A stretch of 55,726 bases of DNA, the filler included, from Bipalium vagum (lineage: Eukaryota), in NCBI GenBank assembly GCA_037834085.1. It is 3 parts of 3 records of this genome, joined end to end, with 100 filler letters (N's around TTAATTAATTAA, not from the genome) between each part and the next. Parts side by side here need not be neighbours in the genome. Positions count along the whole stretch, not along the records: positions 1 to 20,306 come from JBBMKC010255758.1; 2 more parts are not named here. One strand, written 5' to 3'. Of the stretch, positions 1 through 19,160 are shown one piece after another. Under the pieces are notes generated by a model. The model was not told the DNA's origin. It saw only the letters and a list, made by a program, of their open reading frames with translations, and did no database searches. The position numbers and the translations under genes are program-made. Each line of letters starts with the position of its first letter. Positions within the stretch are counted from its first letter, which is position 1.

Positions 1-1244
1 TATAATTACCCAACAATTATCTTGTCTCCGGACGAAATTGCCAACCATTACAGGGAGACGCTCTTATATTTAAAGGATTCAAAAAAGGAGAAACAATCAA
101 TTCCTACGAATTCCTACGAATTCTTTCGACGAACAGAACCCAATATAAACCAAAAATTGAGGACTTTCCCTGGATCCGATTATACCCGACATCTCCCAGC
201 CACCGTTTTCAATCAGACAATAGACCATCACCAATTATTCCAATCATTCGACTGGCAGCTCAGTACATTGAACCAGTTAGGATCATCCAAATCAAAACTT
301 GGCCAGGACAACCTCAAAGACATTTACTATTCTTCCCGATTCCCATCGACCACATTGGAATCCTGAAGTTGTATTCCAATCCAATCGCATTCGGACTGTT
401 CTTCCAGATTCGGCACTAGTTTAGGCTCCTTAAAAGTAAATTTTTAGGCTTGACACTGAAAGTGTCAATGCAAATATAATTTATTTAATTTAGTCTTATT
501 CGTTTTAGTGTTTTTGACTTATCTTATCTCAATTTTAGTAATTTTAATATTAAATAGTGTTTTATAATCAGTATTTTATTATTTTATTAACCACATTTTA
601 TTTCATTTGGTTTTTGGCTTAAAGAAGTATATCTTTAAGACCTCTGCATAAATTTAGAGTAATTGAAATTTCTTTAATCCATATTCATAATATAATATAA
701 ACCGGCTTCCAATTCGAACATTGAAAGACTGGTCCCGATTGATAATAAATTCTTATTTCAAGTTATATATTTTAATCCTAATTAAACCAAGCGTGTTCTG
801 TAGTCAGAACATAGTTCGGATCAATTTAAATAAATAAATTCTCAGACCAGGATCTGAGCATCAATTAATTTTTTGAGAATCCTTTTCTTAGATTTTACCT
901 TTTGTTGTTTTTTGTTCGTATTTCACACGCTAAGTAGGGCGGTGAAATACATTTGTTTTTCTATACCGAGGACCTCTAAGCCTAAGAGCGAGAGGATTTT
1001 TATAATTAATAAATATAATTAATAAAATCATTTTAAAAATCAAAAGAAAATCGGTCAGAATTGTCTCATTCATTGTATATTTGATATCGATTCAAATAAA
1101 AGTATTAAATTGAAAAATCGTTTTCTTAGTATATTTAATTAAAAACGAACACGATCTAAAGCAACCTTCAACCGTTGAGACCTAAGTCATATTCACGCTC
1201 CGACCTTTGACATCCTTTTTGTCCATCAGCTTAGGATCTTAACA
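1..1244. mobile_element. LTR-like repeat, truncated by the contig start, ending ...GATCTTAACA
   Basis: ~1115-1244 is the diverged reverse complement of 20173-20306 (TGTTAAGATCCTAAG...). It has a TG/CA-type terminus, an AATAAA near 830 and several short hairpins (e.g. TTGACACT-GAA-AGTGTCAA at 450-468). No gag/pol is seen. Confidence 0.5.
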
Positions 1245-2065
1245 AGTGATTGCTATTTGAACAATCCTCTGCAAGAAAACTTTCCCCGAGTTTAGGATTA
1301 ATTAAAGAAAGGAAATCTTTTCGCACTGATAAAAATATCAGTGTCTCAAAAGCCCTCAAAGATAGGTAATTCACCACCCTAATTAGTGTGTGAACTACGA
1401 AAACAAAAAGATCTGTGACAGAAGTGAAGAAATGAACAAAAACAATTATTTGATTTTAGAGCTGAACACTAACATTTATTTATAATGTATTTAGTTAAGA
1501 CAGTTGTATAATTTATTAAAATTATCAACTGTAGAATTAATTTTAAGTGATTTTAGCAAATTTATGAAATTTATACGTTGATATTCGGTACAAAAAATTA
1601 TGCAATTCTTTTCAAATTACTAATTATTCAAAACTTTAAAAATGAAATTATAGTAATTATTATTATATATATAATAATAATTACTTGTGGGCATTTATTG
1701 ATTCAAAAATATTTGTGCAATTGGACTTTGCGTTTATGTTTATGTTGATTAATTTGGAATTGAATATGGTCTGAAATATATCCGTTAATCTCTTGGATTT
1801 TGACTGCGCTTTAGATTTGACAATTGACGTGTAAAAAATGTGGGTGTTTTTCAGTATTTCATTCTGTTTTTATATTAAATTTTTTGATTATGTTTTATAT
1901 TTAGTAACACCTTGTTACTAATTTTAGATTTTGTTTTTCTATATGTTACCATATATAATTTTTACTTAACTATTATTTGTTTAAAATCTATTTTTAGTAA
2001 GTTGTACTTACTAAATTATATTTTAGTATATTTTTTATATTTTTGTTTTAATTATTAAAATATGA

Positions 2066-2079
2066 GTAATAATAATGGC

Positions 2080-2121
<42 letters not shown>

Positions 2122-2136
2122 GATAATAATAATAAT
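2066..2136. repeat. (AAT)n microsatellite
   Basis: Directly visible, with two short interruptions. Confidence 0.9.
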
Positions 2137-2247
2137 TAATTACATAATTTATATTTTAATTTCTTGTTCTATAATAAATCTTTTTCGGGAAAGAATTCTT
2201 GTCATATCAAAATCAAATAAAAATAAATATTAAAATAAAATTTTTTA

Positions 2248-2355
2248 TATTAACACAAATAAAACTGCTTTTTGGGATAAAATCATTGTTAAGTTATCAA
2301 ATAAGGATCACATTATCATTTGTTCTTTATTTGTTTTGGGAGTCTCCACATTTCT
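2248..2355. repeat. Direct repeat copy A (contains the stop codon and 3' end of the cassette ORF)
   Basis: TATTAACACAAATAAAACTG...GGGAGTCTCCACATTTCT; 103/108 identical to 4630-4737. Confidence 0.95.
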
Positions 2356-4427
2356 CCCTCTGGAACATGACTTTTGTCCGCAAAAGTTGGCATGTGGAAC
2401 AAGACATGATGATTTCGGCGGGTTCGCCCGATTACGGCTACAATTTCTACTGATGATCCTGTTGGATTGATGACGGCGGACGGGAAGGTGTAACATTGAA
2501 TAAGTTGAACTTCTTTGTCAACGGGTTTGCCTTGAAACATTGGGGTAGGAGCATCCATATCGATCGGATAAGTGATGGGAAGAGCTGTAAAGGCAGCGTT
2601 GGTAACTTCAGACTGCGTGGAATGGTTTTTAGTATTCTTTTGCCTTTTAATGGTTTGAGACGATTGGGAGGACATTATACGATCATCGGTTTGTAAGGAG
2701 ATTGACAAAGATTGTGGGGTTTCTGTCTGAGTCGAAATTGGAAAAAGAACATCCTTGGCTTTTTTGAGAACCTCTTGGATACGAGGTCTTTTTCGCTTGG
2801 ACTTCTGAGTCCCCTTGTTTGCGATTAAAGGAGGGGCTGTGGGAAATGGAATTGTTTCCAGAATGATGTTTGTGCTAGTCGAAGGACCATTATCGATGAC
2901 AGGATCGAAAGAAGTATCCTGATTTTCGTCGATTATGAGGATACAATCCTCATAATCAGATTTATCGTACTTCAGGTGGCGTCAGATACGGTTGATTGTC
3001 TATTATCATTGGAGATTTAGATTTATCTCTAGGTTGGTTTAAAGGAGGAGGTAATTTCCGTAACAGTGGGCTGTTCTCAGTCTGCAAATTCGTTAAGATT
3101 TTGCGACCTCGACCACTACTGAACGTGCATTCATAAGAAAATGGGGAGGAGGGGAGGCGGGTGTAAAATGACTTCATTAGCATTATGAATGGGTGGGTAA
3201 TCACTGAAGGTCAAATCGGCTCTTACTGACAGTTCTTTTTTGAACCAAATTTCGCAGAGCATGTGTATTTGCTTGACACACTGCACTTTTCTCCATTTGT
3301 GACCGCGTTTGGTTGTGGTTGCCATCTCTGGAATATTAAGTTTATTAGCCAATGGTAATAATCGTAAAGTGGTATTTGGTTTTAAGTGGCACATATGCTT
3401 TATTTGGGGAATATATTGCAAGTCGATGTATCCTGCAATATGTGTTGTTAGAATACCACATAATGTTAGCATATACTCGACTTGGTTTCCCACGATTATT
3501 TTTCCTTTGATGACATCACGAAAAAATTCACAGGCTTCTGGCTCATCCATGCCATTTTGGTAAGCACCATCAGTGATGCCTGTTTGATCAAAATTTGACT
3601 TAAATCTTCGTCTGGATGAGACTATAGTTTGGAAAAGGTCTGTACGATCATATCCTAAAACATGAATGGCAAGTAGCACGTGTTTACAAGTTAAAGGTGG
3701 TTACATCTATTAAAACTTCATTGCGATGTAAGTGATAGAGGTATCCCAATTTTTCTGGCTTGGGTAGGAAGTAAGGGTTTTTGGCCAATAGGGATTTGTA
3801 TAAATCGTTATCCTCATTGATCAATCTGGTGGTAGGTTCATAGTCTGATCCTTGAATGTCCTCGATGACAAGGATAGTGTTAGGTTTTATTGTCTCAAAA
3901 CACATGGTACGGGCTCTAACGATCAAGTGTTCACATTTGACAGAGAAATATCGTTCGATGGTCAGGGGAGCTGGAATTCCTCCAACACTTAGAATAACAG
4001 AGTTATTGCACACGTGTTCGTGAATAGTTTCTTTTGGGTACGTATTATCTTTGTAATAGGGGATGACCTCATGGAGGTAGAAATATTTAGGATTAACTAC
4101 TCTGTGTATATAAAATGTTCTGATGCCTGTGGAGAACAATTTGCAGGCGTTAGGTATCTCCTTTGTGTCAAAAGTGACGTCATGGACAGGGATTAGTTCT
4201 TCTTGGGCCTCAAGATATTTGATCGACTGTTGGAAAGGGAATTTTTTGAATTGCTGTACATGAATAACAGCATCTGGAGAGACATTGGTCATGTACTGAC
4301 TCAAAGAGATTGAATAGGAAGGGGCATTGGTGGATATAGATGAGGAGATTGGTTTGGGGATGGATTTGATGGGATTGATCGGATGCTCCATATTGAATCC
4401 ACGGGAAGGTTTTGATTTGTGTTGCAT
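2316..4427 (-). pseudogene. Frameshifted ~700-aa ORF: SNase-like domain + REX4/ISG20-type DEDDh exonuclease-like domain + disordered, basic (KSKRKRPR) tail
   Basis: ORFs 3684-4514, 3131-3679, 2962-3204 and 2316-2708 (the last frame is open upstream to ~2980) are chained by three +1 shifts. ATG at 4427 follows a TTTCAG acceptor. Motifs VLIDVTTF / LLAIHVLG / TGIT / IKGKIIVGN / YIDLQY parallel the REX4 family. VILSVGGIPAP...DLYKSLLAK parallels SN domains. Confidence 0.55.
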
Positions 4428-4629
4428 GGCTGAAAGTAAAATTAATAATAACACCATTCTATCAAATTTGGTTAATAGATGTGTGTTACTGATGAGCAGC
4501 AATACGTTAAGCAAGTGAATTTCTACAAAATCCCTGCTTTTATCTGTAGTTGCTATAATACCGTCATTTCATACATGACTGGTTCAACCACATGGGTTTC
4601 ATAATCATTTTTAAAACGAAAATATTTTT

Positions 4630-4737
4630 TATTAATACAAATAAAACTGTTTTTTGGGATAAAATCATTTTTAAGATATCAAATAAGGATCACATTATCA
4701 TTTGTTCTTTGTTTGTTTTGGGAGTCTCCACATTTCT
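4630..4737. repeat. Direct repeat copy B (upstream of the cassette ORF)
   Basis: 103/108 identical to 2248-2355. Confidence 0.95.
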
Positions 4738-5059
4738 ATAATAATTTTAATATCATTCTCATATCATAAAATAGAAAATTATTTCTTGATTTTATTTTAA
4801 TCATTTAGTATCGATTTAAAGATTTAGTTTATTTATTATTTTAAAAATATTGGTTTCTAGGTGAAGATTATTCTGCAAGTGAAACCAAACTTTTTTCCTT
4901 TATGAACAAGAAAATTATCATCTTATTTTAATTACTAAAATATCAGGTTTTTACAGTCACAAAAATATTGCCATAATGTTTGACAAGATCATAAAATCAA
5001 TATACACGTAAAAAAGAATGTAGCCAATCTTACAGAATTAAAAATGTATTTAATATTTG

Positions 5060-5270
5060 TGTTGGCGCAACTCTTATCAAGCACACCTGAGGTTGCTGTG
5101 GACCTATCTAAAGAGCTCGTAACAAAAACAAAAAACAACTATTCTAAATATGTATTGATAAAATGAGGGTAAGACCCTTTTAATTATACAAACAAACTGC
5201 AACAGGCAGTCTCAACACAAACATCAATCTTTAATTAAAAATCTGTGCCAGAGAAAACCCTGGTCAGCAA
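5060..5270 (+). repeat. Dispersed repeat (LTR-like start TGTTGG), copy 1
   Basis: Shares the blocks CTGAGGTTGCT, CTAAAGAGCTCGT, ATGAGGGT and CAGGCAGTCTCAACA with 30991-31289. Confidence 0.7.
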
Positions 5271-6368
5271 GAAAAAAATTACCAAGATAAAACATTACGG
5301 CAATTTTCTGGACGAAATATAATGAATTTTTGCTGGGTTATATACTATTTTACTGTTCATTTTAGCGTCTCTGATTGGTCAGTAAAGCTATCAATCATGA
5401 TGTACTTTCTATATTTAATTATTACTAAAAATAAAATAAATTTCTAAAAATGAAAAACTATAATATTATTATTTATACATGCTACTGACTTAAAATCAAT
5501 AGTTGATTCTATTTAAAAATTTTTTTATTAAAACTAATTATAATTTAATAATTTTAGGATAACATGCTACTAATTAAAAATCAGTAGTGTCTCCTGAAAT
5601 AATATTAAAAATTTATTTTTAAAAATTTATTTAATTAATTCTAAATTAATAATTAAAATGCACAATTTTAAATCAGCCAGTGTATTAATTAAATTTTAAT
5701 TTTTCGCCAAAATTTTATTTACAGAAATTATGAGATAGGAGTCGAACCTCAACATTTGTGACACAGAATATTTTAATTAATATGTAGATAAGTGTAGTTA
5801 TAAAAATTGTCCACTTTGTAAGAAAATATATATACTATTTTTTAATGAACACAAATGTTATTTAAAATCTTGAAAGTAAATCTAAACCAAGTAATAAATA
5901 TTTATTTTTTGAATTTGAAGGAATACAAGAAAATGCAGGTTAACATTAAATGACTTATGTAATAGTATACGATTCAGAAAGACAAATATATTATAAAATT
6001 AAAATAATGGAACTTTTATTTTACAATTAAATGTAATTTAGAATATTCAAAAACTGATAAATATTAGATAATATTAAATTTTTAAAAGAAATAATAATTG
6101 AAGATTCAATTTCTTCAGTTGATACTTTTTTGTAAATTTTTCATTTGAAAAGATTTTGTAACGGTATAGGTCGCTTAACTAAGCAGTTACAAGGGGCTTA
6201 TATCTGAGCTCATCAACTCCCTCGAAGGAGGTTTAAACAATAAGATAATCACGAATAAATAAAGCGAATAACAAAAGGTATATTTATTATCAGAAATGCA
6301 AGGTTAGATATCTAATATACAATCAACATACACAAATACAAACAATTAGTTATTTAACTACTAAAATA

Positions 6369-7697
6369 CATTCTTGTGCAAATTAATTGAAACAAAACAT
6401 GTCTTAAAAAATCTTATTCCTCTTACTACAAACAGACAATTTTTAATTATATACATAAATTATGATTCCAATGACTGATAAAATCATTAAGCTATTTCAT
6501 ATTACACTTTTTTCAAAGTATTTTCTATTAACTTAAATTAATTGTAAGCCAATCGTGATTCAAAAGGGATATTACACCCAGAAAACGAACAGAGATCAAA
6601 AGTTTACTCGAACACATATCAAAAACATTTTGAGAGATTGCTTCAATTGCTGGTGTGAGTCTTGTAACTGTCAGCCGTGTCACCAAGTTGAGACAAGATA
6701 CTGGATCGATTTCTCTTTTAAACGCAAAGGTAGGTGTTGTCGTAAAAAGAATACCACTACAAGAGATGATGCATACTTACTGCGTCAAAGAAATAAAGAT
6801 CCCTCAAGACAAGCGATGGATTTAATATAGATTTGAAAGGGAAAAGAATCCAAATTAATTCTTCTACAGTTCGCAGTCACCTTATCGCAGCTGGTCGCCG
6901 CACTAAAAGACCTGTCAGAAAACCATTTCTAACAAAAGCAATGAAAGGAAAACGGTATAACTGGGCAAAGAAGTACAAGTATTGGACTATGGAGCATTGG
7001 AGAACAGTTTTTTAGCGATGAGAGCCATTTCTTTGTACAAGGTTAGAGAATTCAATATATTCTCATGTCACCAAGAGAGAAGTTTCGCCATTTTTTTACA
7101 TAGATCAGCGTGTCAAGCACCCGTTAAAGATGTTTTTGGGAATGTTTTACTTATTATGGTATCGGAAACTTACAACCAATCGAAGGAATGATGTGTTCAC
7201 AACAATATGTTGAAGTTCTACAGAAAGCAGTTGTTACAGAGCTGCAGAAGACGTATCCTGAAGGTTCTGGAATCTTTCAACATGAACTTGTTCCATGCCA
7301 CAGATCGAAAATGGTGAATGATTTCATCAAAGAAAGGCATATACAAGTACTTGATTGGCCCAGTAATTCTCCCGACCTTAATCCAATTAAGAATTTGTGG
7401 GTCATATGCAAAAGTTGTCTTTGTTTTATCGACTGCACCACAATGCAAAAGCTTATTTCGGAGATCAATCAAGTGTGGTTAAAGGATCCGAAAATCACAA
7501 GTGATTATTTAAAACTAGCAGGCTCCATGCCAAATTGTATTGAAATGTTATTTAAAAATAGAGGAAGTCATATTCCTTACTGATGTTTTTGAATATAAAA
7601 TTTAATGTAAAATAAACGACGTACAATTTTAGTTAAGTAAAAAAATTAATTATTAATATATTTTTATTTGTTGTTTCAATTAATTTTCACAAGAGTG
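6369..7697 (+). mobile_element. Tc1-family (DD34E) transposon, full-length but decayed
   Basis: TIRs CA(T/C)TCTTGTG(C/A)AAATTAATTGAAAC with TA on both sides. Broken transposase ~6565-7583 with HTH, RPVRKPFLT, F-SDESHF, GIFQHE.VPCH and WPSNSPDLNPIKNLW; it has stops and frameshifts. Confidence 0.92.
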
Positions 7698-9826
7698 TAC
7701 CATCTTCACTTTATGACAGCCGAAGAAGTCCTGCTCTCAAAAATGCGTATTCTGTCGCCTAAAGCAAAGCAGAATCGAATTACCAAGAGAACAATAAAAA
7801 GGAATATAAGATTATTTTTAAAAGAATTTACTTCGATCACTAAATAAACGTTTATTAATTATTTTATTTAACTCTATCGGTTAAGCACTTTTGGAATTAA
7901 TACAAATTCCTTACCTTTATTAATATTACCGACGTCTTAAGAACTTTTTTGAATAGATATCAAATCATATTCTAAGCTGTGAAGGGCATTTTGAATTTGA
8001 AAACCACGAGTTTATATATTCCTGTTTTCCACACTCTGGAGCTCATCATAAGATTTTTTTTGAGCTTATCAAATTTTGGTTTTGAGGTTTAAAAGAATAT
8101 TTTCCACATTATTTTAATACAACAAAAATCATAATTGCATACCTTCTAATTGCAAATCCTTTCCAGATGTTGTAATTATTGATTCTTCTCCAAATATATT
8201 CCCATGTGTTCCTCAACATTTCCTTTTATTTGTTTCCTTGAATTTTTGAAGTTTTTAGCCATTTCACATCCTTTCAATTGAATTAATGAGCCCGTTTGTT
8301 ATAGGGTTTTGAAGGCTTTTAAGTGGTTGAAGGTTAAATGTTTGAAGAATATTATTTTATTTCACTTTTATTATTATAGTCACTATTCTTTATAAAAACT
8401 TAACAAATAGTTAAACAAATTTTTGTCAAAGAACTTTCTCACAAATTGGCGATATAATTAAAAACTATCACAATCACTATTTAAAGGTCATATCAATGGA
8501 AATGAAACATTATATAAAAAATCTATAAACAATAACTATGGATGTTTAAATTTTTTGATATATGGAACCTGATAATATTCAACATATACAAGAATCTGAA
8601 TCAAAATTCTAATCTCCTACATTTGAACATTCTGTAAGAGTAGAAGTCTTTGAGTTAAAAGCTTAAGTACTTGTGAAGAGATTTCAAAAATGAGTAACAA
8701 TTCAAAATATTATTCACCATAAAATCTCAATGATGAAAATATCACAAAATAGTTTATATAAATATTCTCATACGTCAAAAGCATTAGATATTTATTTTAA
8801 TAAATAACAAATGACGACATTACTGGAATCATTTTGAGCTGAAAGGTCAATTTTCGATTGTTATTGATAAGTATTATTGACGAGTTTAATGAATTCTTAT
8901 ACTTATCTGATTTAAACAAACTTTATCAGTTCTAACAATACCGCTCATGTTTTAGAATACTATTTCCAGATAAAAATATTTTTTTAAAGTATTAAAAGCT
9001 TAAAATTATCCAATTTTTTGTAAATAATTTTTACAAAATATTTTCCTTAGTAATAAAAACCCTCTATTGTTCTAACATTTCTTATTTGGATTTTCATTAA
9101 ATTTGAAATATCTTGCTAATTCGAAAAATCAATAAAGTGAGTCAATTTTTTCTAATCGTTGAATCTTAAACAATTTTTTAATATTTAACAAATGAAAATC
9201 TATCGAACTAAAATTAAATCATTTTAATAAAAAAGAAACAATCCAAATTAAAGCAAGTTTTCTTAACATTGAATTTCAGAAAACTGAAATTGATAATAAT
9301 AAAAACAAATGCCAGCGTTCTATAAACGTAAATTAGTACAAAAACTAACACCGCTAATGTCAATAAATATTTAAACATAACAATAATATTATATGAACTC
9401 TAAAAATTCGAATTTTACAAAGATATAGATTATTAGGTGAATAATACAAAATCAACGTCAACTTAATAATTAAATTTTTACTTCTTCATAATAATGATAA
9501 TCTAACAATTCATTCAAAAATATTGAGTCTTAACGAAAACGACAAAAGAAAACTATTTGAGATATAAGTTTAATTCTATTATAACAATCTAAGAGTAAAT
9601 ATTTCTTTACTCAACCCATTCATACAATATAGGCGTGAAGAAGAAAACGGCAGAAATATTATAAAACTGCTAATAATATTAATAATAACTCGAAATAATA
9701 TGAAATAAAATTGAAGGTAAAGAAGAGAACATTTATGATAAGTTCGAAAATATTTAATTTTAAAAACTAAACAAGTAACCAAAATCAAATATCATTAAAG
9801 TAAAATCGCGGTTTTCATAATTTTAG

Positions 9827-12800
9827 CTAATTTTGAAACAAATGTCCCGTAAAGGCTCTATAGTCGTAAGCATCTGGAATCGGCTGGCCAGATTCCGATA
9901 TATAGGGAGGCATGCTTCGAAGACAGAATTCGGCTTGGTCTTTTGTCAGATTCTAAAAAAGTTTATTAAATACCAAATATTTCATCAAAAAACAAATGAT
10001 TTTAATAACATACTGCATATAATTCCTGTTTGGTTATATAAGGTTTCGATTCTTTTGTCAAAGCACAGAAAGCCTCCTCTACTTCTTGACGAGATTGTAC
10101 ATTTTCTGTTTCACGACTAATCATAAACGCCATAAACTCTTGCAATGTCACGTAACCATCACGATTAGGATCAACAACAGCCAAAATTGTTTCGAACTCC
10201 GGATCGATTTGACCTTCTTCAACAAAAGCCAAATCCATTCCCAGTGCTCTCAAACAAGATTTGAACTCTCTGTGATCAAGTCTTCCAGACTTGTCTTTGT
10301 CGAAATGTTTGAACATCATTGAGAATTCTCTAAGTGCCTCTTCACTAACACCACTGACGTTACGGGCTTGTATTTGTTGTTCCAAATTATGATGCATTCT
10401 CATGGCTAATTGGTCTAATTGATCCCAAGCTTGACTGAGTCCAACCTTAAGTTTAAAACTCAATTTCGGTCCGACAAAATTAATAAGATTTAATCAATTT
10501 GTATAATTGAAAATTATTATTAAATATTGTCATACATTTATGTTTATGAGTTGATATTTCATATCTAAAAATTCAGATTTAAAGATTAAGAATCACTTAA
10601 CAATAACCGGTCATCAATAAAAAACGACTTAATAAAACAATTCAGATAACTTTTAAAGCTTGACCTTCCAGATTTATAAAACTGAGAAATGTTTAAAAAA
10701 ATGATTTTGTAAAATCTTCTAAAAATTTAATACGATGCAGACAGAATAAGACAAACGTAAAACAAGCGAAAATTAAATGTTAAGAAAGTTTTGAAATTGT
10801 TTTTAAATGCACAAAAAGTAACATAAATATAAATTTGCTAAAAGAAAATTCAAGGCATTGGTAAAAGTAATATCTAATATTTCTTAAAATCAATACAAGA
10901 GAAAAAAAATTTCTGAATTTTTCTGCTAATCTGATTATTTTTCATTCTATATAGTGTGTATTATTGATTTCATTTTGTTCCTAATAATTTAGAGCTAATG
11001 AACTTCGTAGTAAACACATTACTTATTTTCAGAAAAGAGAATAATAAATTATTGTAATTTACGGCATTTAAGCATAAACTATTTAATCTATTCTAAATTG
11101 TTAAGTATTCTAATGATTAATACAGAACTTTCATCAGTGATAAGATTTAATTTTATTCTACCATGAAAATTTGAAATAACAATTAGCTTTAAACAAAAAG
11201 ATTAAACTAAAAAATAATAAAATCTGAGTGAAAATGTTCACAAAATATTAATCAATAAATTATTGAATAAGATCTGAAATTTATGTATTAACCTTAATTG
11301 ACCAAGAATCCATTGTGATGATAATGTAAAGTTGTGCAGTTCATAATTTTCTCAAAATACGAACACGATATTTACATTACATAATAATAATATTGAACAC
11401 TAGAATTTTAAGACTAAATATTTAGAAAAAATGGACCATATGTGATTATGTAAAGCAAGTTGTCTAATCAATATTTTACACTACACATTAGGATTAAGTA
11501 GTAAGCAACAAATAAAATTACCGTGCTGTGTTCTGTGTGACGATTATCAAGAATCAACCGTTCTTCTAAAATAGCTCCTTTTTCTTCAATTTGCTTCAAG
11601 TCAATCTTACGATCCTTAACTTCCTTCGATTTGACTTTGGTAGCTTCCAGCTGCTCCTCCAATGTTCCAATACCTTCCATTAAGGCTGATCGTACACCTT
11701 GTAACCATTGATGGAATCTGTCAGCCATCTGTGCAAATTCTTGTCGGAGAACATCGTTCTCTTCTTGTCTTTTATTTTCTCGAACCAATTCAGCATCTCG
11801 TTCCTGAATAATTCTTTGAAGATTTCTCCAAGTTTCTTCTAAAGCTTCCATGGTGAACCATGTATAAGGATTTCCTCCAACCTGAAAAAAATTTATAGGT
11901 TTTCAAAAGTATTCAAATGTTATACTCCATAGCTTTGAATTTCTTTGTCTAATTCTCCAAGGTACAAGAAGTCTTCTTCAGCGGCCTTTAATGAATTTTT
12001 AAAGTGAGCATGTGCTTCACAAAGAGCCCTAATTTCTTCTAACGAATTGCATCGTACAGGATCGGTTAGATCTTCTTCAGCATTTTCAAACCATGAGTTG
12101 AAGGCCGAAGCTTTCTTAGCAAACGTCAGATAAAGTTCCTCAACTTTTTTGTATCTCTCTTGTAATTTAAGCAAATGATCTTTCCTTCTCTTGGATTCTC
12201 TTTGTAACTTGTCCCATCGATCAATAAGATTTTGATATCTGTGCTTAATGGCGTCACTTTGTACATGATTCGACTCAATAAGTTGATTGTGTAATGATGT
12301 AATAACTTCAATTCCTTCAACTCTAAAAGATTCCAGACCGGTGTCAAATGTTTCGTGTTTGGTTAACAAGGTTTGCACACTACTCAAATCTCTACCATAG
12401 TCATCACTTTTTACCTAAAAATAATCAATTAATAATATTAATAAATATTTTATTCAAACTTGAGTTTCTTTATCAGCAATCCACGATTCTACAACATCGG
12501 TCTTCCACATAAATTGCAGAAAAGCTGAATTATCTTCAAGACAACGTTTTCTTCTTAGGGCAGCTTTACGAAGAACTAATAACTTTTCACGCAATCCTTC
12601 ACATCGCTGATCAATGGCTTTAGAATTGTGATTATTATCCTCAATCAATTTCTGACCCTCAGCACATATATCATTGCATTTGTCTTCATGAACTTTCATG
12701 TCTGTTTCAAAGGCATCATGTTTTTTCAACAATCCTTGAACTGCAGCTAAAGTGTCTCCATAATCAGTGCTGCTTAACAAATGCTGCTTTTCTAAGATCC

Positions 12801-15800
12801 AAGCTTCTTCTTCCTCAACAGTATCTAAGAACCTTTGATATTCTGATGATTCTTCAAGCTTTGTTTTGCGAACCATTGACAATTGTTGCAGTTCTTCCCA
12901 AGCAGTTTCCAAATGATGCAATTTTTTCTTGATTTCTTCAGGATTTGCTAATTGAGACTCATTCATTAATTCATGACCTTGTTTGTCTACACTTTCAATT
13001 ACTGGTTTATGAGCCAGAATTTCATTTTCTAATCTCTGATGTTTTTTCTTTAGGTTACGTACGCCTATTAAATCTCGACCATAGTCTTCAGAGCTGACAA
13101 GAATTTTTTTCTCTCTTATCCAAGCTTCTTCATCATCAATTGTTCGATAGAAATCATGAAGTCGCTTTGCTTTACCCAAAGTAACAGCTCGATTTTCAGC
13201 TAATTGTTTAACTCTTTCATACCGTTCATTGATCATTTTCTTACGCTCCCTAATCGTATCAGAATCACACGTACCGGATTCAATGAATTCGTCGGCTCTC
13301 TCATTAAGATCTCGGATTCGGTCTTCATGAGCATGAATGTCGGTACCTAATACTTGATGTTTGGACAGTAAACTGTCAACGGACGCTGAATCTTTTCCAT
13401 AGTCTGGACTGGATAATGAATGTTCAACCTCTCCTAGCCAAAATTCAACATCTTTTAATCCAGCATTATAAACAGCTTGTCGATTGGCTTCTTGTAACTT
13501 TTCCGATTTGTCTTTTGATTTATTGACTAAGTAATCCCATTGATCTGCTAATTTATTTACTCGTTCCTCAACAGCATTTTCCTGACCCATACATTGTCCT
13601 GGAAAAGAGTTACATACAAATTAACCATGTTATGTAATAATAACAATAATAACTGATTTAGATTGTTATAATGATTATTCACTGATACGTATTTTAATTA
13701 ATCAATAACAAATCAATAAATGTAAATTCTTGAAATTTAAAAATCATAACAATTTACACACAAAATAAAGCACGTCGAAACCAGATAGTGTCACAAATAG
13801 TGAAATAAATTACTAAATTTCAATTCACCTTTTTCTTTCAATCTTTGACCTGATCCCAAAATACTTTGCAGTCTTTCAGCATTGGCAGCTAGTTCAGCTT
13901 CAAATGCCTGATGCTTTTGGTGTTTTGCTTGAATATTTGTTGTCGGATCTTTGTATGATTCATCCAACGTGTTCTGTAGTTTTTCATTAATCCAAATTTC
14001 CATCTCATCTGCATCTCTTATAAACGCCTGCAAAGTTTGAACGTCTCCTAAACGACATCTGTTAGCAATCATATTTTCTTTAAGATTTCCCCATCGAGCA
14101 AGAACTTCATTGCATTTTTCTTTTATGCCACCCTTGTCATAATGTTCATGTTCAACCAACTGATCAGCAAATTCCTTCAATGCTTGCATCTTGTCCTCTT
14201 GCATATTAATAGCTCTATTAAAGTCCTCGTGCTTCTTTATAAGTGAATCTACAGTTTTGTCATCAACATCTTCACCCAATAAAGATGATTCCCTAATTGT
14301 CATCCAGTCTTCTGCTTGCTCACAATCACGAAGATATAGTTGCAATTCCAGACATTGGTCAAGTTGTTTTTTGCGATTAATCCATTTTCTGAGTACATTT
14401 GTATAATGATTACGAAATCTCAAAATAATTACTCATTTAATTGCTCTTTAGCGTCAGCAATACTCTGCAATTTATCTTTTATTTCATCCTCAGCATAGTG
14501 TCCGGTTTTTAATAATTCTTTACCAAAATCTTCAAAGTTTTGAAAGGTTCCTGATCTGGTATCTATTTCCGCTTGGTGTTCCTAGATGAATATCATAAAA
14601 TATATTATCATAAATCTATGACAAGTGAACTGAAAAGTTAACTTCAAGTCAAGTGCATTGCATGCATAATAAAATTATTTAACAAAACATTGTAAAATAT
14701 TTTTTCCATAAAATTACACAAGAAACATCGATACTTTGACAAAAAATACATATTTATTTTAGAAGAATACATCATGCTCTGATCATTACTATTATACTAC
14801 CTCGCCAATAGGTTCCTGACCTATGCCATAATCACCAGTTCGATTACCAATTTCACCTGCTAAATCCTTAATTTGCGAAAAGTTAATTAACTGATATTTG
14901 AAAAGGTGTACTATCATCAGTTGAGAAGAGATTAACATTAATAAATATTTGAAATAATATTTAATTAAAAATATAACATTATACTAAAAACTTTCAATAT
15001 TTTTAAATATAATGATAATCATTATCCATTTCCAATAATTAAATTTATTAATAAAAATCGAGATTAATTTTACCCTGTGACGCTCAAGAAGAGCTTCTGC
15101 GCCGGTCACATCTTTAGCTAATTCATCTGATGATACCAAGGCATTCATAGTATTAACCCATGACATTAGGTCTCTAAATAAAAACCATAGTTATTAGCAA
15201 ATCGAAAGTAATATTTTTGAAAACCTGTAATCAGCTAAGAACTTCTGTAAATCAATAGAATTAAACAATTTTCCTTTATAATCTTCGGCCTTTTTCGTTA
15301 GATTATTCCACATTTCATTTATTTCTTCTTGATGTTGACAAATACCTTCGGCCTCATTTGGATGAGTTTGAACCAACTCAGCTGCCTTCGAGTCTAATAA
15401 TTTAACTCTTTCTCCCAATGCCACAAGATCTCTTTCAAGTGCATCATGTTTTCGAAATAGTCTTTGAACTGAAGTGAGATCTTTTCCAACATCATTTGTG
15501 TTTAATCTAGCATCTTTTTCCTCAATCCATTCTTTCGCTTCATCACATTCTCTATGATAACGTTGCACTGCATAACAATCTTCTAGATCCTTTACTTTTC
15601 TTGTAGTAACTTCCTCTAATTGTTCATATTTCTTCTGTAATTGAGTTATGATGCCTTCAATTTTTTCAACCGCTTCAGTTTGACCACTTCTTTTTAATTT
15701 ATTTGCCTTATCCTTCAATTCTTTAATCTTTTCCTCTTTCTCTTTCTGCTCGCTAACAAATTCATCAACTTTTTTCTTTTCACTTTGTACCGCTTCAAGA

Positions 15801-18800
15801 TGACCCGGAGTAATGACCTCGGTCACTGCCACTAATTCCTTTTCCACTACCCACTGATGAAGATCATTAGCCTCTCTGACCAATTGATAAGCTTGAACAG
15901 AGTCCTTCAACCGATCTCTTCTATCACGACCAAGACTTAGTAAGTTTTCATATTGGTTTTCTAAATTCTTTTGTTGAGATGCTACAGTTATCTGTTCAGG
16001 TGCGTTTGGGTCAATTTCGGACATCATTGCATCCACCTTTTTTACATATGCAGCTGGCACATGTCCTTGGCGATCATTTATTTCAACTTTCCACCAATCT
16101 TTATGATTGCTATTTAAAAGAGTTAACACATCGCCTTTTCTCATCGACACTTCTCGTGGATTCTTTTCCTGGTAATCGTACAAAGCCATGACGGTCTCTT
16201 TTCCATAACTGTCACTAACTGGAGCTTCTTGCATTTTGCAAGCATCAGCCTGAATCCGCAAAGCATCGATAGTTGATCTATAGGCTTCAATATCAGCCAT
16301 CAATGCATCGTGTTTTTTCAGCAGTGCCTCAGTAGAATCTTCATCCTTTCCGAACTCCGTACTGCCAACTAAAGGCTCCTTTTCTCGCATCCAGCTTTCA
16401 GCTTCACTTGCATCAGCTAAATATTGTTGAGCCTCAAGAGAGTCGTCTAAAAGTTGTCTCCTTTTATCTGCTTTACTCTTTAGGTCATTCCAAATATTCT
16501 TCAAATCTGAAATCTTTTTATCAATATCTCTATTTGCATAGTGATCCGTATCAATCATTTTCTGTCCTTCGTTGCACACCTCAAAGATTCTTGGTTCATG
16601 TCCAATAATTTCAGCTTGGATAGCCTGATGCTTTTTGATCAAATTCTGTACTCCAATCAAATCACGACCGACATTTGTTGATCCAGCAATCGGTTCCTTC
16701 TCGTGAATCCAATCCTCTTCATCATCAGCATCCCGGTAGAATTGGTGCAATTTATAAGCATCACTCAACTTGTTTTTTCTTCGTTCCAAAGGATCTTTTA
16801 ATTTTGCATATCGATTACATACCTCGATCTGTTTCTTCTTTATCGTATCGGAATCAAAATGTTTTTCGTCAACAAACTGATCGGCTTGTTGCACGAAAGA
16901 ATCGATTCTGTCTTGGTGTGAAGATATATCTGATTCCAACAAATTATGTTTCTTTTGCAGATTTGTCACACTATTCAAATCTTTTCCGCAGTCATCAGAT
17001 GCTAATTGTGATTCGACTTCAGTTAACCAGATTTCCATATCTTCCACATTTCTAATGAACTGTTGCTGACCACTGGCCTGGGAGAGATTTTTCTCTTTGA
17101 CTTTTGATGCCAAGACTAAATCGTTCCACAGTCTGTCGAGCTCTTCGATTCTTTCTCGTATATCGTCTGATTTGTTGTGATTAGAATCCAACAGACTTTG
17201 ACCCCGATCTTTAACATCATCCAAGCGACTTTCATTGGCTGCAATTTCAGCCAAAAAGTTTTGATGCTTTTGCACTTTTGATTGCAGATTTGTTGGCTCT
17301 TTGTAATTTTCATCTGACGCAGTCTTCAATTTTTCAACAATCCATGCTTTGATCTCATCAGCATCCCGATCAAATAACTGGTAATTGTGCGAGTCGTCCA
17401 AACTTCCTTTTCTTAATTTTGCTTTTTTCTCCAAATTATCTTTCCTATTTAATAAATCGTCCCTTTTCTTTGCTACATCGGCAGCAGCATAATGACCGTT
17501 CTCTATTAATTTGTTAGCAATATCATCTAATCTTTGAGTTTTCTCCTCTTGGGCCGCAAGTGACTTTTCAAAGTCTTCGTGTTTTCTAATTAAAGCTTCA
17601 ACGGAATCTAGGGAATCCCCAACATCATTATTCTCCAGAAATGCTTCCTGTTTAGCAATCCAGGCCTCGGCTTGTTCAGTATCTCGATAAAATAATTGTA
17701 AATCCATATTCTGTTCGTATAGTGCACGACGTTCTTGCCACAATTGAATCAAAAGAATTCTTTCTTTGTCCAGACGCTCCAGCTTGACATTTATGTCATC
17801 TTTTTGAGGGTGATTCATATTAATCAGCTGTTCGCCTTCGCTTCTGCAAGACTTAAAGCTCTCTTCACGAGAATCAATCTCACTTTTGTGTTCGCCGTGT
17901 CTCTCCATCAGAGCCTCAACTCCAGCTACATCTTTGGCTAATTCATCAGCCGATATCACAGCCTTCATGTCAGTGAGCCATGACAATAAATCTCGATAAT
18001 CTGATAAAAATCTATGCAATAAATATGAAACATCAAGTTGCTTATTCCTCTCTACTGATCTTTCTTTCAGCTGTCTCCAGGCCTGCAGCAAAGCATCTTT
18101 TTTGTCTTGAATTGCGTCTTTAGAATCTGGATGCTTTTCTGACAATTCCGCTGCATCTTTGGCCAACTGATTTACTTTTTCTTCCAATGCCATCAAATCT
18201 CGGTCAAGTGCTTCATGCTTTCGTTTCAAAGCCTGAACAGATGCTAAATCTCTTCCGAAATCTTCACTGGAAAGAGGAATAGACTTTTCGTTTACCCATG
18301 AAATCGTTTTATCAGTATCCCTGAAAAATTTTTGGATTTCATGAGCTTCAAACAACTTTTGTTGGCGCTTTTTTGCTAATTTCTTCAATCGATTCAGGGC
18401 TTCTTCAACATCATTTTTCTTATTGATTAATGATTCCTGTTCAGGGAAACCCTCTTCTATTAATTGATCGGCCTTTGCATATATTTCCGCTGCCTTTTCT
18501 TCATGATACTCCAAATCTTTCATGAATTCATTAAACTTTTTCTGTAAAACTTCAACATGTTCCAGATCTTGGCCGAACTCTTCGGATGTTACAAAGGTTT
18601 CCTTTTCCTTAACCCAGCACAATATTTCCTCAACTCGTCGTGAAAATTGAACATAATCCATAGTCAATCTCAGTAGTCGAGATTTCTCTTTGAACATGTT
18701 TAACAATTTATCCCACAAAGCATGCAACTGATCAAGTCTGGTCTGAATGATCTCCGACGCATAATGATGACTTTCAATCATTTCATTTCCACTTTTATCA

Positions 18801-19160
18801 AGAGCATTTAAATTTTCTGCTTGAGCTGCAATTTCCAATTCTAATGCTTGGTGTTTTTGATTTTTACTTTGGAGATTGGTAACATCTTTGAAATGTTCAT
18901 CTGAATATGTCTGAATTTTTTCCATAATCCAACTTTCCAATTCATCGGCATCTCGTTTGAAAAATTGATATCTATAAAAAAATTAACAAACTTATATGGA
19001 TTTGAAATAATAACTTTTTGGCATCTTCCAATTTTTTTCGTCTTTCTTCGGTAGCTTCTTTGAAAGCTGAATAACGATTCAGTACCTGTTCACGTCTCTC
19101 TTGAATATCTTCTGGAGTTTCAAGTATTTTAATTTCCTTTGGTATAGTGATATCTGCCAT
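9827..19160 (-). CDS. SPTAN1: Alpha-spectrin (non-erythroid type), complete, 10 coding exons, 2415 aa
   Basis: Exons (minus, all GT-AG, phases consistent): 19160-19015, 18971-15225, 15173-15074, 14581-14433, 14388-13829, 13598-12460, 12414-11926, 11881-11522, 10445-10014, 9952-9827; total 7248 nt. N-terminus [16 protein letters not shown]; spectrin repeats; SH3 ([19 protein letters not shown]); EF hands ([26 protein letters not shown]); C-terminus [13 protein letters not shown]. An AG acceptor lies immediately before the ATG. Confidence 0.98.
14801..14866 (-). CDS. Candidate alternative cassette exon of alpha-spectrin ([22 protein letters not shown])
   Basis: 66 nt, AAG| acceptor, GAG|GTAGTA donor, stop-free. 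Phase 0-0 matches the host intron 14582-15073. It is a GC-richer island within the intron. Confidence 0.6.

Follow-up and report, generated by a model that had tools for sequence, protein, structure and literature searches.

A deleted copy of an enveloped Ty3/gypsy element in Bipalium vagum and its accessory gene with two predicted enzyme folds

Anatomy of the locus

Within the window, a stretch of 55,726 nucleotides of Bipalium vagum DNA (GCA_037834085.1, filler included), the region at 2167-4744 and its left flank can be read on the minus strand as the first 96 bp of a 5' LTR (4637-4732), the last 27 codons and stop of ORF3 (4553-4636), an accessory gene named ORF4 (2316-4427), a polypurine tract (2351-2360) and the adjoining 3' LTR (1245-2350). 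ORF3 encodes a membrane protein fused to pol, of which only the cytoplasmic tail is left here. ORF4, whose reading frame continues across the polypurine tract and ends inside the LTR, is ~720 aa long in unbroken relatives; it had been treated as an ORF in a first-pass annotation of this DNA, but the copy in the window is broken by three frame changes (near 3690, at 3170-3155 and at 2968). As noted in that annotation, its ATG at 4427 is preceded at 4430-4450 (minus strand) by a T-rich tract with an AG 2 nt before the ATG. This is likely a splice acceptor for ORF4, and it is present in 10 of the 11 clade copies examined.

The 3' LTR starts with TG at 2350 and is matched by solo LTRs of 1.1-1.3 kb. 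LTRs in this family are true, direct repeats of ~1.2 kb with TG..CA termini (148 exact starts and 148 exact ends in the assembly), and 4-bp duplications flank three of three solo LTRs in one set and seven of eight in another, with one locus common to both. A nested LTR from a sister family has inserted close to the distal end of the 3' LTR of the element; its 3' part corresponds to positions 1-1244 (plus strand), and many of its copies stop at the identical point with variable flanks. AGTG at 1245-1248 is the target duplication of this nested LTR, with its partner on contig C201293, and a solo LTR that has a 4-bp duplication of its own (L319) links the end of the nested LTR to its start on the same contig. 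The true target duplication of the element itself is TTTC at 4733-4736, whose partner adjoins the LTR end on C201293. From these two matching 4-bp duplications we infer that the window's contig was joined to C201293, with which it shares no overlap, and that the final ~157 bp of the 3' LTR lie there, L274 carrying the missing end. Among 60 LTR-end loci, L274 alone is interrupted where the nested LTR inserted, and the sequence flanking it is TTTC. All 14 LTR ends of the element's own family that were selected for ending in TTTGG are followed by a primer-site motif, which is complementary to two host tRNA-like sequences. One of these has a CCA anticodon-like loop, which points to "Trp" as the probable primer tRNA; ARAGORN made no tRNA call at the six candidate loci.

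The layout that had been flagged initially is a direct repeat of 124 nt (2232-2355 and 4614-4737), 93% identical at a spacing of 2382 bp, the last 108 nt of which differ at five places (95%), exactly as first described. It had been interpreted as the end of an ORF and its 3'UTR, of which only ~40 nt are indeed coding, the rest being mostly the start of the LTR. An 11-bp direct repeat had been placed at the outer boundaries. This 11-mer, TTCTATAATAA, does occur at 2167-2177 and again at 4734, but it is internal LTR sequence rather than a target duplication and marks no boundary, because LTR homology continues ~900 bp further left to 1247 and the four closest LTR copies carry it at the corresponding interior position. 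The degenerate sub-repeat at 2176-2222 was borne out, since it aligns to 2260-2313 within the LTR with a score reached by 2 of 1000 shuffles.

This copy lacks gag, env and pol entirely, as well as most of its 5' LTR, and their loss was likely due to a microhomology-mediated deletion. The 5' LTR stub is joined to the element interior across an A/T-rich microhomology (4614-4636), which is matched by an LTR site at 2232-2254. The assembly has a single occurrence of the junction 30-mer, and of the 11 copies that reach 4636, 10 run on into common upstream element sequence while none has the stub. This deleted form is therefore a decay product and not a cassette spreading in that form. Over its 96 places, the stub has four differences from the 3' LTR, two of them derived on each side. 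Since both copies have changed, the repeat is unlikely to be an artefact of assembly overlap. The stretch is covered by contigs of one sequencing run, one of which carries 4705-5088 unchanged but extends just 28 letters to the left of the LTR edge, short of the junction at 4636. Another copy of the element, L005, also breaks at 4636, there into unrelated DNA.

These features would be explained if the element integrated whole at TTTC, its 3' LTR subsequently received the insertion of a sister LTR, and ~12-14 kb (a size summed from distances over several partial copies) were deleted across ~20 bp of A/T microhomology. It is very improbable that the stub is not the original 5' LTR but an insertion made during repair, templated by the 3' junction between polypurine tract and LTR. 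What speaks for such copying is that the repeat extends five bases (TTTCT) into the polypurine tract of the 3' copy, for which the chance is ~0.003 per site, and that 28 other LTR flanks match the polypurine tract for at most three bases. However, a 4-bp target duplication requires the first four of the five bases to be present next to the displaced LTR end as well, and on C201293 they are; the fifth matching base (T) is a modest coincidence because the site was chosen for its repeat.

A multi-copy family of enveloped Ty3/gypsy elements

The genome-wide search that had been proposed revealed a multi-copy family with 4-bp, not 11-bp, target duplications; there are at least 49 genome matches to the region, with 40 of 386 candidates scored. 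Across overlapping copies, the order of genes is gag-env-protease-RT-RNase H-integrase-membrane protein-ORF4, and the size of a full element is estimated at ~16 kb from distances summed over partial copies. L077, which is 88% identical to the window at the DNA level, encodes a mononegavirus-type fusion protein (Pfam E 5e-35) between the zinc knuckles and the protease. In both L077 and L075, which belong to the element's own family by 74-93% protein identity, a gB/mononegavirus-type env sits between gag and pol. The pol order protease-RT-RNase H-integrase, deleted in the window copy, is found in L074, L076 and L073, and the family RT is closest to that of Ty3 (E 7e-38). Sister subfamilies have ankyrin repeats.

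The region is thus almost certainly one dead, internally deleted copy of a multi-copy enveloped Ty3/gypsy element, in which a 5' LTR stub, the ORF4 accessory gene and the 3' LTR can be recognised as what is left. The LTR termini, polypurine tract, primer-site motif, 4-bp target duplications, gene order and unique junction are all read directly from the DNA. The first-pass annotation had correctly considered the region mobile, retro-derived and non-autonomous, but its class and anatomy have to be revised to a deleted Ty3/gypsy copy with the stub of a genuine 5' LTR. The absence of RT holds for the window copy and not for the family, which has RT, RNase H and integrase. We give practically no credence to a Penelope-like pseudo-LTR element or a cassette that arose from a circle and moves as one unit with an 11-bp duplication, the layout that had been suggested. 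Terminal redundancy, a splice acceptor and a window copy without RT would fit such an origin, but TG..CA LTRs, a polypurine tract, a primer site, an integrase and 4-bp duplications do not, the 11-mer is internal, the junction is unique, and the repeats are the stub of a genuine 5' LTR and a 3' LTR behind a polypurine tract. A Penelope-like element was specifically rejected since the RT is Ty3-like, an integrase is present and there is no hammerhead; an Rfam scan of 1-8000 gave no match at E<=0.1, in agreement with the hammerhead core not having been found by eye. The flagged repeat layout is ordinary decay and of little importance, and the ORF4 cargo carries more weight.

The GAG-ENV-POL layout of the host element is already published for flatworm errantiviruses (PMC13524379). 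Smed_errantivirus_1 and _2 (Chary and Hayashi, eLife 2026, PMC13524379) are likewise multi-copy Ty3/gypsy elements in which gag and pol are separated by a gB-type fusion protein, and their coding span of ~14.8 kb in the authors' table is similar in size to the family described here. They are listed there without a tRNA type, whereas our family has a clear primer-site motif. The main text of that article contains no mention of exonuclease, DEDD, AlkB, dioxygenase, fibronectin, ankyrin or splice, and its seven supplements none of exonuclease or DEDD. The giant planarian gypsy elements Burro/GYPSM1, as reviewed in PMC6431247, share with our family the in-frame position of env between gag and protease and the accessory ORFs, and with its sister subfamilies the ankyrin repeats. 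However, their internal region is up to 25 kb (>30 kb in total), compared to LTRs of 1.2 kb and an estimated ~16 kb here, and the review's account of them names no 3' exonuclease or dioxygenase-fold gene. BIR, BCL2, MATH and Smc domains characterise the Burro/GYPSM1 polyprotein; here, one 398-aa frame between the knuckles and env, in copies that are decayed, gave no Pfam match, BIR, BCL2 and MATH included.

Two predicted enzyme folds in ORF4

Pfam had no match for the window's ORF pieces and no domain in 64 ORF4 members (the best match was an unrelated family, E 0.002), and word-based protein searches returned no ORF4 relative, or just an input sequence. A SWIM zinc finger (CKH) was rejected as an artefact of a frame change in the window copy. 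A structure model from 11 close copies reached a pLDDT of 36, and its profile matched nothing relevant in the PDB; the usable model (pLDDT 86) was made from a 60%-identical relative, L150, and not from the window copy.

The N-terminal part of ORF4 (3850-4325, minus strand) is predicted to adopt a double-stranded beta-helix fold of the AlkB/prolyl-hydroxylase type, complete with N-terminal extension but without the HxD..H iron motif. Residues 1-161 of the model match ALKBH1, ALKBH6, AlkB and P4H with Z 10-11 and rmsd 3.2-3.6 over 138-152 residues, and fold matches include vaccinia C16 N-terminal domains. Comparing the profile of this domain with three AlkB sequences was not significant, and the Atlas search returned nothing for it, making this an assignment by fold alone. 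The iron motif appears to have been lost, as HxD/E is found in none of 30 N-domains and a His in the expected strand windows, which were set from predicted strands and the usual topology of the fold, in 1 of 30.

The second domain (3230-3730, minus strand) resembles ISG20/REX4-like DEDDh exonucleases, with most catalytic residues missing. ISG20L2 was found at E 1.4e-5 in a profile search with ORF4, and residues 202-378 of the model match ISG20 with Z 16.1 and rmsd 3.3 over 163 aligned residues; DEDDh leads in the Atlas search were all below 0.9. All five catalytic residues are kept in 2 of 46 element-type or unnamed domains, some of these rows being partial, and the set of four acidic residues and His is absent from the window's clade. 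Two related lineages do keep a complete nuclease site, where the motif is DEED. Elsewhere, the Glu of the ExoI motif is replaced by Thr in 49/51, and the second acidic residue, the catalytic His and the last Asp are replaced differently in different lineages. The first Asp/Glu is kept in 50/52, a Cys in 41/42, and a Glu that lies a position or two away from exonuclease motif II in 43/49. Residual metal binding is possible because this neighbouring Glu is conserved and the first Asp/Glu retained; remote relatives (P0001-P0008) lack even the first Asp. Deep support in the domain tree is weak, and we make no claim about the order or number of inactivation events. Taken over both folds, catalysis has probably been lost.

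ORF4 dN/dS is nonetheless 0.02-0.27 in 19 of 21 estimable comparisons, which are not independent and of which several have dS >1 (saturation affected 7 of 28 pairs); values of 0.44 and 1.10 were obtained for the youngest pair. Like the missing DEDDh residues, these low ratios come straight from the aligned genes, and they indicate that ORF4 is under strong purifying selection in related elements. Downstream of the two folds, all on the minus strand, are an acidic-hydrophobic motif, YEDC-I-L-x-I-D (2919-2966), conserved in 37 of 54 loci, many of them truncated, which we take to be SUMO-interacting-like, and a basic cluster, KSKRKRPR (2781-2804), with a similar cluster in 34 of 54 loci, which is likely a nuclear localisation signal. 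The ORF4 tail is acidic and proline-rich. The full explanation, in which a dead enveloped Ty3/gypsy copy preserves an accessory gene with two predicted folds, is in our view highly probable.

Possible roles of ORF4 and known systems

We tentatively propose an anti-silencing role for ORF4. In active relatives, a spliced subgenomic RNA would encode the protein, which in the nucleus would serve as a decoy that binds nucleic acids without catalysis, the dead DEDDh fold holding RNA 3' ends and the dioxygenase-type fold reading modified bases or binding a partner, such that element RNA would be protected from host decay or piRNA-type silencing. PIWI silencing strongly targets LTR elements in planarians (PMC8532177), and ORF4 would be a concrete candidate for how such elements persist against it. 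A transactivator is a less likely but possible reading: ORF4 might work on the LTR from within the nucleus, by transactivation or by targeting chromatin, much as the spliced accessory genes at the 3' end of complex retroviruses do. Its location at the 3' end, where it overlaps the LTR, would suggest this, as would the conserved acceptor, the basic cluster and a tail that is acidic and rich in proline, except that both folded domains match enzymes acting on RNA ends and modified bases, and no known DNA-binding folds. By analogy with the inactivated dioxygenases of poxviruses, ORF4 could also be a scaffold or decoy that binds a host protein without contacting nucleic acids. We consider this doubtful. 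Neither domain carries net basic charge, the N-domain has the vaccinia C16 matches mentioned above, and inactivated prolyl hydroxylases are described in poxviruses (10.1101/2022.11.22.517515), but a shared fold is no proof of function and, judging from the nuclease domain of active relatives, the ancestral substrate was a nucleic acid. It is unlikely that the active site of ORF4 has been remodelled and still serves to trim or modify nucleic acids. The retained first acidic residue, nearby Glu and Cys, the full site in two related lineages and the strong purifying selection would be consistent with this, whereas the lineage-specific replacement of the other residues, and the lack of the first Asp in remote relatives, argue against it.

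With hundreds of matches in deeply split lineages, two predicted enzyme folds have been kept under strong selection while their catalytic sites appear to have been lost, and the lineages with an intact nuclease site in the same genome would make this a natural series in which a mobile element turns an enzyme into a binding or decoy protein. More speculatively, and with considerable doubt, a large clade of enveloped flatworm elements may have turned a captured dioxygenase-exonuclease fusion into a dedicated, spliced nuclear counter-defence protein that combines two dead enzymes with a SUMO-binding-like tail. If true, an animal retrotransposon would here encode a suppressor of silencing of the piRNA/SUMO type, and its active and inactivated stages would exist together in one genome.

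The text of the literature searched contains no description of an AlkB-like/ISG20-like fusion, of the dioxygenase fold in this setting or of the inactivation. In orchid Ty3/gypsy elements, a 2-oxoglutarate dioxygenase of the AlkB type is an extra ORF proposed to counter host surveillance (PMC9289625), but it is recent, recognisable by sequence and described as an active m6A demethylase, while the fold in ORF4 is seen by structure alone and has no iron motif. The poxvirus proteins C4, C10, A37, F11 and A51 are described as a captured dioxygenase fold with a disrupted catalytic site that was kept by the virus, but in large DNA viruses and with no fused exonuclease fold (10.1101/2022.11.22.517515). 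In the published account of the bdelloid elements Juno and Vesta, a DnaQ-like exonuclease is a separate ORF after pol with the motif DEED, as in the two intact lineages here (PMC5408684). Their ORF3 belongs to the RNase D-like DEDDy type, retains its catalytic residues and lacks a dioxygenase fold, unlike the mostly dead and fused ISG20-like DEDDh domain of ORF4 (PMC5408684). The extra enzymes of both the rotifer (DEDDy) and orchid (AlkB) LTR elements are reported to keep their catalytic residues (PMC5408684, PMC9289625). Juno and Vesta also offer a parallel for the locus itself, since microhomology deletions yield partial copies there (PMC5408684), as is likely in the window.

A deletion scar in a Ty3/gypsy element

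The layout at 2167..4744, which the first-pass annotation took for a retro-mobilised or circle-derived cassette of unknown class, is an ordinary deletion scar, and the element is of a known kind. The direct repeat behind that reading is borne out (2232-2355 against 4614-4737, 124 nt, 93%, spacing 2382), with five differences between the two copies of its 108-nt terminal part, and a search found neither a hammerhead core nor, within 1-8000, any Rfam match at E<=0.1. The 11-mer at the supposed boundaries is present at 2167 and 4734, but it is no target duplication, because the four closest copies have the one at 2167 in the interior of their LTR. Between the two LTR copies of this element, 4 of 96 positions differ, two on each side, which speaks against an assembly overlap; the stretch is covered by contigs of one run, coverage that does not decide the 4636 junction.

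The LTR starts at 2350 on the minus strand, directly after a purine tract (2351-2360), and at this flank other copies carry either the same tract or variable host DNA. Exact LTR starts and exact LTR ends each number 148 in the genome, and solo LTRs are 1.1-1.3 kb long with TG..CA ends and 4-bp duplications (in 3/3 solo LTRs and in 7/8 of a second set, one locus being common to both). Sister families (window 2340-2357; loci L096-L149) have a common LTR start, TGTGGAGACT, following the purine tract, and the junction of tract and LTR doubles as code for the conserved final ORF4 peptide, GEMWRL.

At the other end, 4637-4732 is the initial 96 bp of an LTR, 4614-4636 is similar to the LTR site as well as to the ORF3 site, and the deletion junction occurs once in the assembly. 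The 3' LTR of the window is interrupted at 1245 by a sister LTR. Among 60 LTR-end loci, only L274 (contig C201293) supplies the 157 bp that the window's 3' LTR lacks, with AGTG and the start of a sister LTR coming next; its outer flank, TTTC, is identical to 4733-4736, and a solo LTR connects the sister-LTR start seen on C201293 to the end at 1244. Since the window contig and C201293 do not overlap, we infer the link between them. In the simplest history, the element would have inserted whole, a sister LTR would then have nested into its 3' LTR, and a large deletion would have followed across the microhomology. The minus-strand ORF is interrupted by three frame changes, and the window copy is almost certainly a dead remnant.

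The contig (window 1-20306, from a 441-Mb, A/T-rich animal assembly) also holds a separate high-copy repeat of ~700 bp (5050-5760), a decayed Tc1/mariner-type element with 34-bp inverted arms and a DDE_3 frame (6367-7699), and a host alpha-spectrin gene with an exon-like frame of 3.8 kb (10002-18982, minus strand).

Gene order and a predicted second surface protein

Scoring 40 of 386 candidates gives at least 49 genomic matches to the flagged region. Eleven copies lose similarity at 4636, and 10 of them run on into common upstream sequence encoding a membrane protein (ORF3), with integrase, RNase H and an RT nearest to Ty3 (E 7e-38) lying upstream of it; the remaining one leads into unrelated DNA. 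A break into unrelated A/T-rich DNA at the ORF3 equivalent of 4636, the same position as in the window, is seen in the copy L005/L078 (contig C22627), and the site may be fragile. Pieced together from natural copies that overlap, the order is LTR, primer site, gag, zinc knuckles, mononegavirus-type fusion protein, protease, RT, RNase H, integrase, pol-fused ORF3, ORF4, polypurine tract and LTR; across ORF4, the window shares 88% identity with L077, a copy that has env. Such a gag-env-pol layout has been published for flatworm gB-type errantiviruses (PMC13524379) and for Burro (PMC6431247). Sister subfamilies have ankyrin repeats and a second protease, and at L141:5828-7755 the repeats are flanked by two protease-like domains. 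Big internal deletions are frequent in the superfamily (L075, L077, L118, L119, L125, L126 and L143); L125 joins an env tail, protease and exonuclease fold in a single 726-aa frame.

In ORF3, integrase continues in frame into a stretch resembling a signal peptide, then an ectodomain and a single membrane segment (L191:1389-2663, L141:1729-2685, L074:562-1440 and L204:2903-3259), and one of seven frames has a weak fibronectin type III match (E 0.002). From sequence, ORF3 is predicted to be a second surface protein in addition to env.

ORF4, a predicted fusion of two altered enzyme folds

The cargo is a selected, probably doubly inactivated enzyme fusion whose putatively active relatives share the genome. 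ORF4 (2316..4427, minus strand, in the window's broken copy) is one frame of ~720 aa when assembled from overlapping unbroken natural frames. Of 11 clade copies examined, 10 have a putative T-rich splice acceptor ahead of it, with AG shortly 5' of the ATG; none was apparent in the two distant copies whose nuclease site is intact. Scoring 150 of 769 candidates gives at least 151 matches to its exonuclease-like part, 38-100% identical. At 9 of 51 loci examined this part lies 3' of integrase or RT, most of the remainder being short contigs, and it has eight unnamed relatives in a 1.84-billion-protein library. A 64-sequence profile matches human ISG20L2 across 180 positions (E 1.4e-5). In a structure model of a 60%-identical relative (pLDDT 86, pTM 0.83), residues 202-378 resemble ISG20 (Z 16.1, rmsd 3.3), and residues 1-161 resemble ALKBH1, ALKBH6, AlkB and prolyl hydroxylases (Z 10-11, rmsd 3.2-3.6); for this second similarity, which is one of fold, a profile comparison with three AlkB sequences was not significant.

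Domains of the window's clade retain an acid at the first position of the DEDDh site (D in 36 and E in 14 of 52); the second position is Thr in 49 of 51, neither of two registers tried has an acid at the third, and other residues replace the His and the final Asp. The full D-E-E-H-D set is present in 2 of 46 element-type or unnamed domains, some rows being partial: L191 (3371-4531), which follows RNase H and integrase, and L193 (3171-4589); P0009 is a further intact-site relative. The match between the L191 domain and the dead domain has a probability of 98%, and as a query L191 gives 141 matches, mostly at 19-34% identity. With the register set from predicted strands and the general topology of the fold, HxD/E is missing from the expected strand in all 30 N-domains, and one has a distal His. 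Of 21 estimable comparisons, whose pairs are not independent, 19 have a dN/dS of 0.02-0.27, and the youngest pair gives 0.44 and 1.10; 7 of 28 comparisons were saturated.

Possible roles and known systems

The ORF4 tail is acidic and rich in proline and serine. At 37 of 54 loci it carries a conserved YEDC-I-L-x-I-D motif, by its pattern a possible SUMO-interacting signal, and at 34 of 54 a basic cluster that may serve nuclear import. Our tentative preference among four readings is that ORF4 in active relatives would be made from spliced RNA and act in the nucleus as a non-catalytic nucleic-acid-binding decoy, shielding the element's RNA from decay or from silencing of the piRNA type. In Maelstrom and EXD1, both inactive DEDD derivatives, RNA binding is retained (PMC5408684), and planarian LTR elements are under strong PIWI repression (PMC8532177). 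A putative LTR transactivator is a somewhat weaker candidate, and a putative protein scaffold an unlikely one; most doubtful is a putative remodelled enzyme, a Glu lying near the motif in 43 of 49 sequences as a caveat to the loss of catalysis.

PMC13524379 does not mention exonuclease, DEDD, AlkB or dioxygenase in its text, nor exonuclease or DEDD in its seven supplements, and our literature searches gave no account of the fused, inactivated form. Rotifer LTR elements carry exonucleases as extra ORFs with intact sites (PMC5408684), whereas most catalytic residues are missing in the window's ORF4 clade. An active AlkB is described for orchid gypsy elements (PMC9289625), and dead dioxygenase folds for poxviruses (10.1101/2022.11.22.517515).
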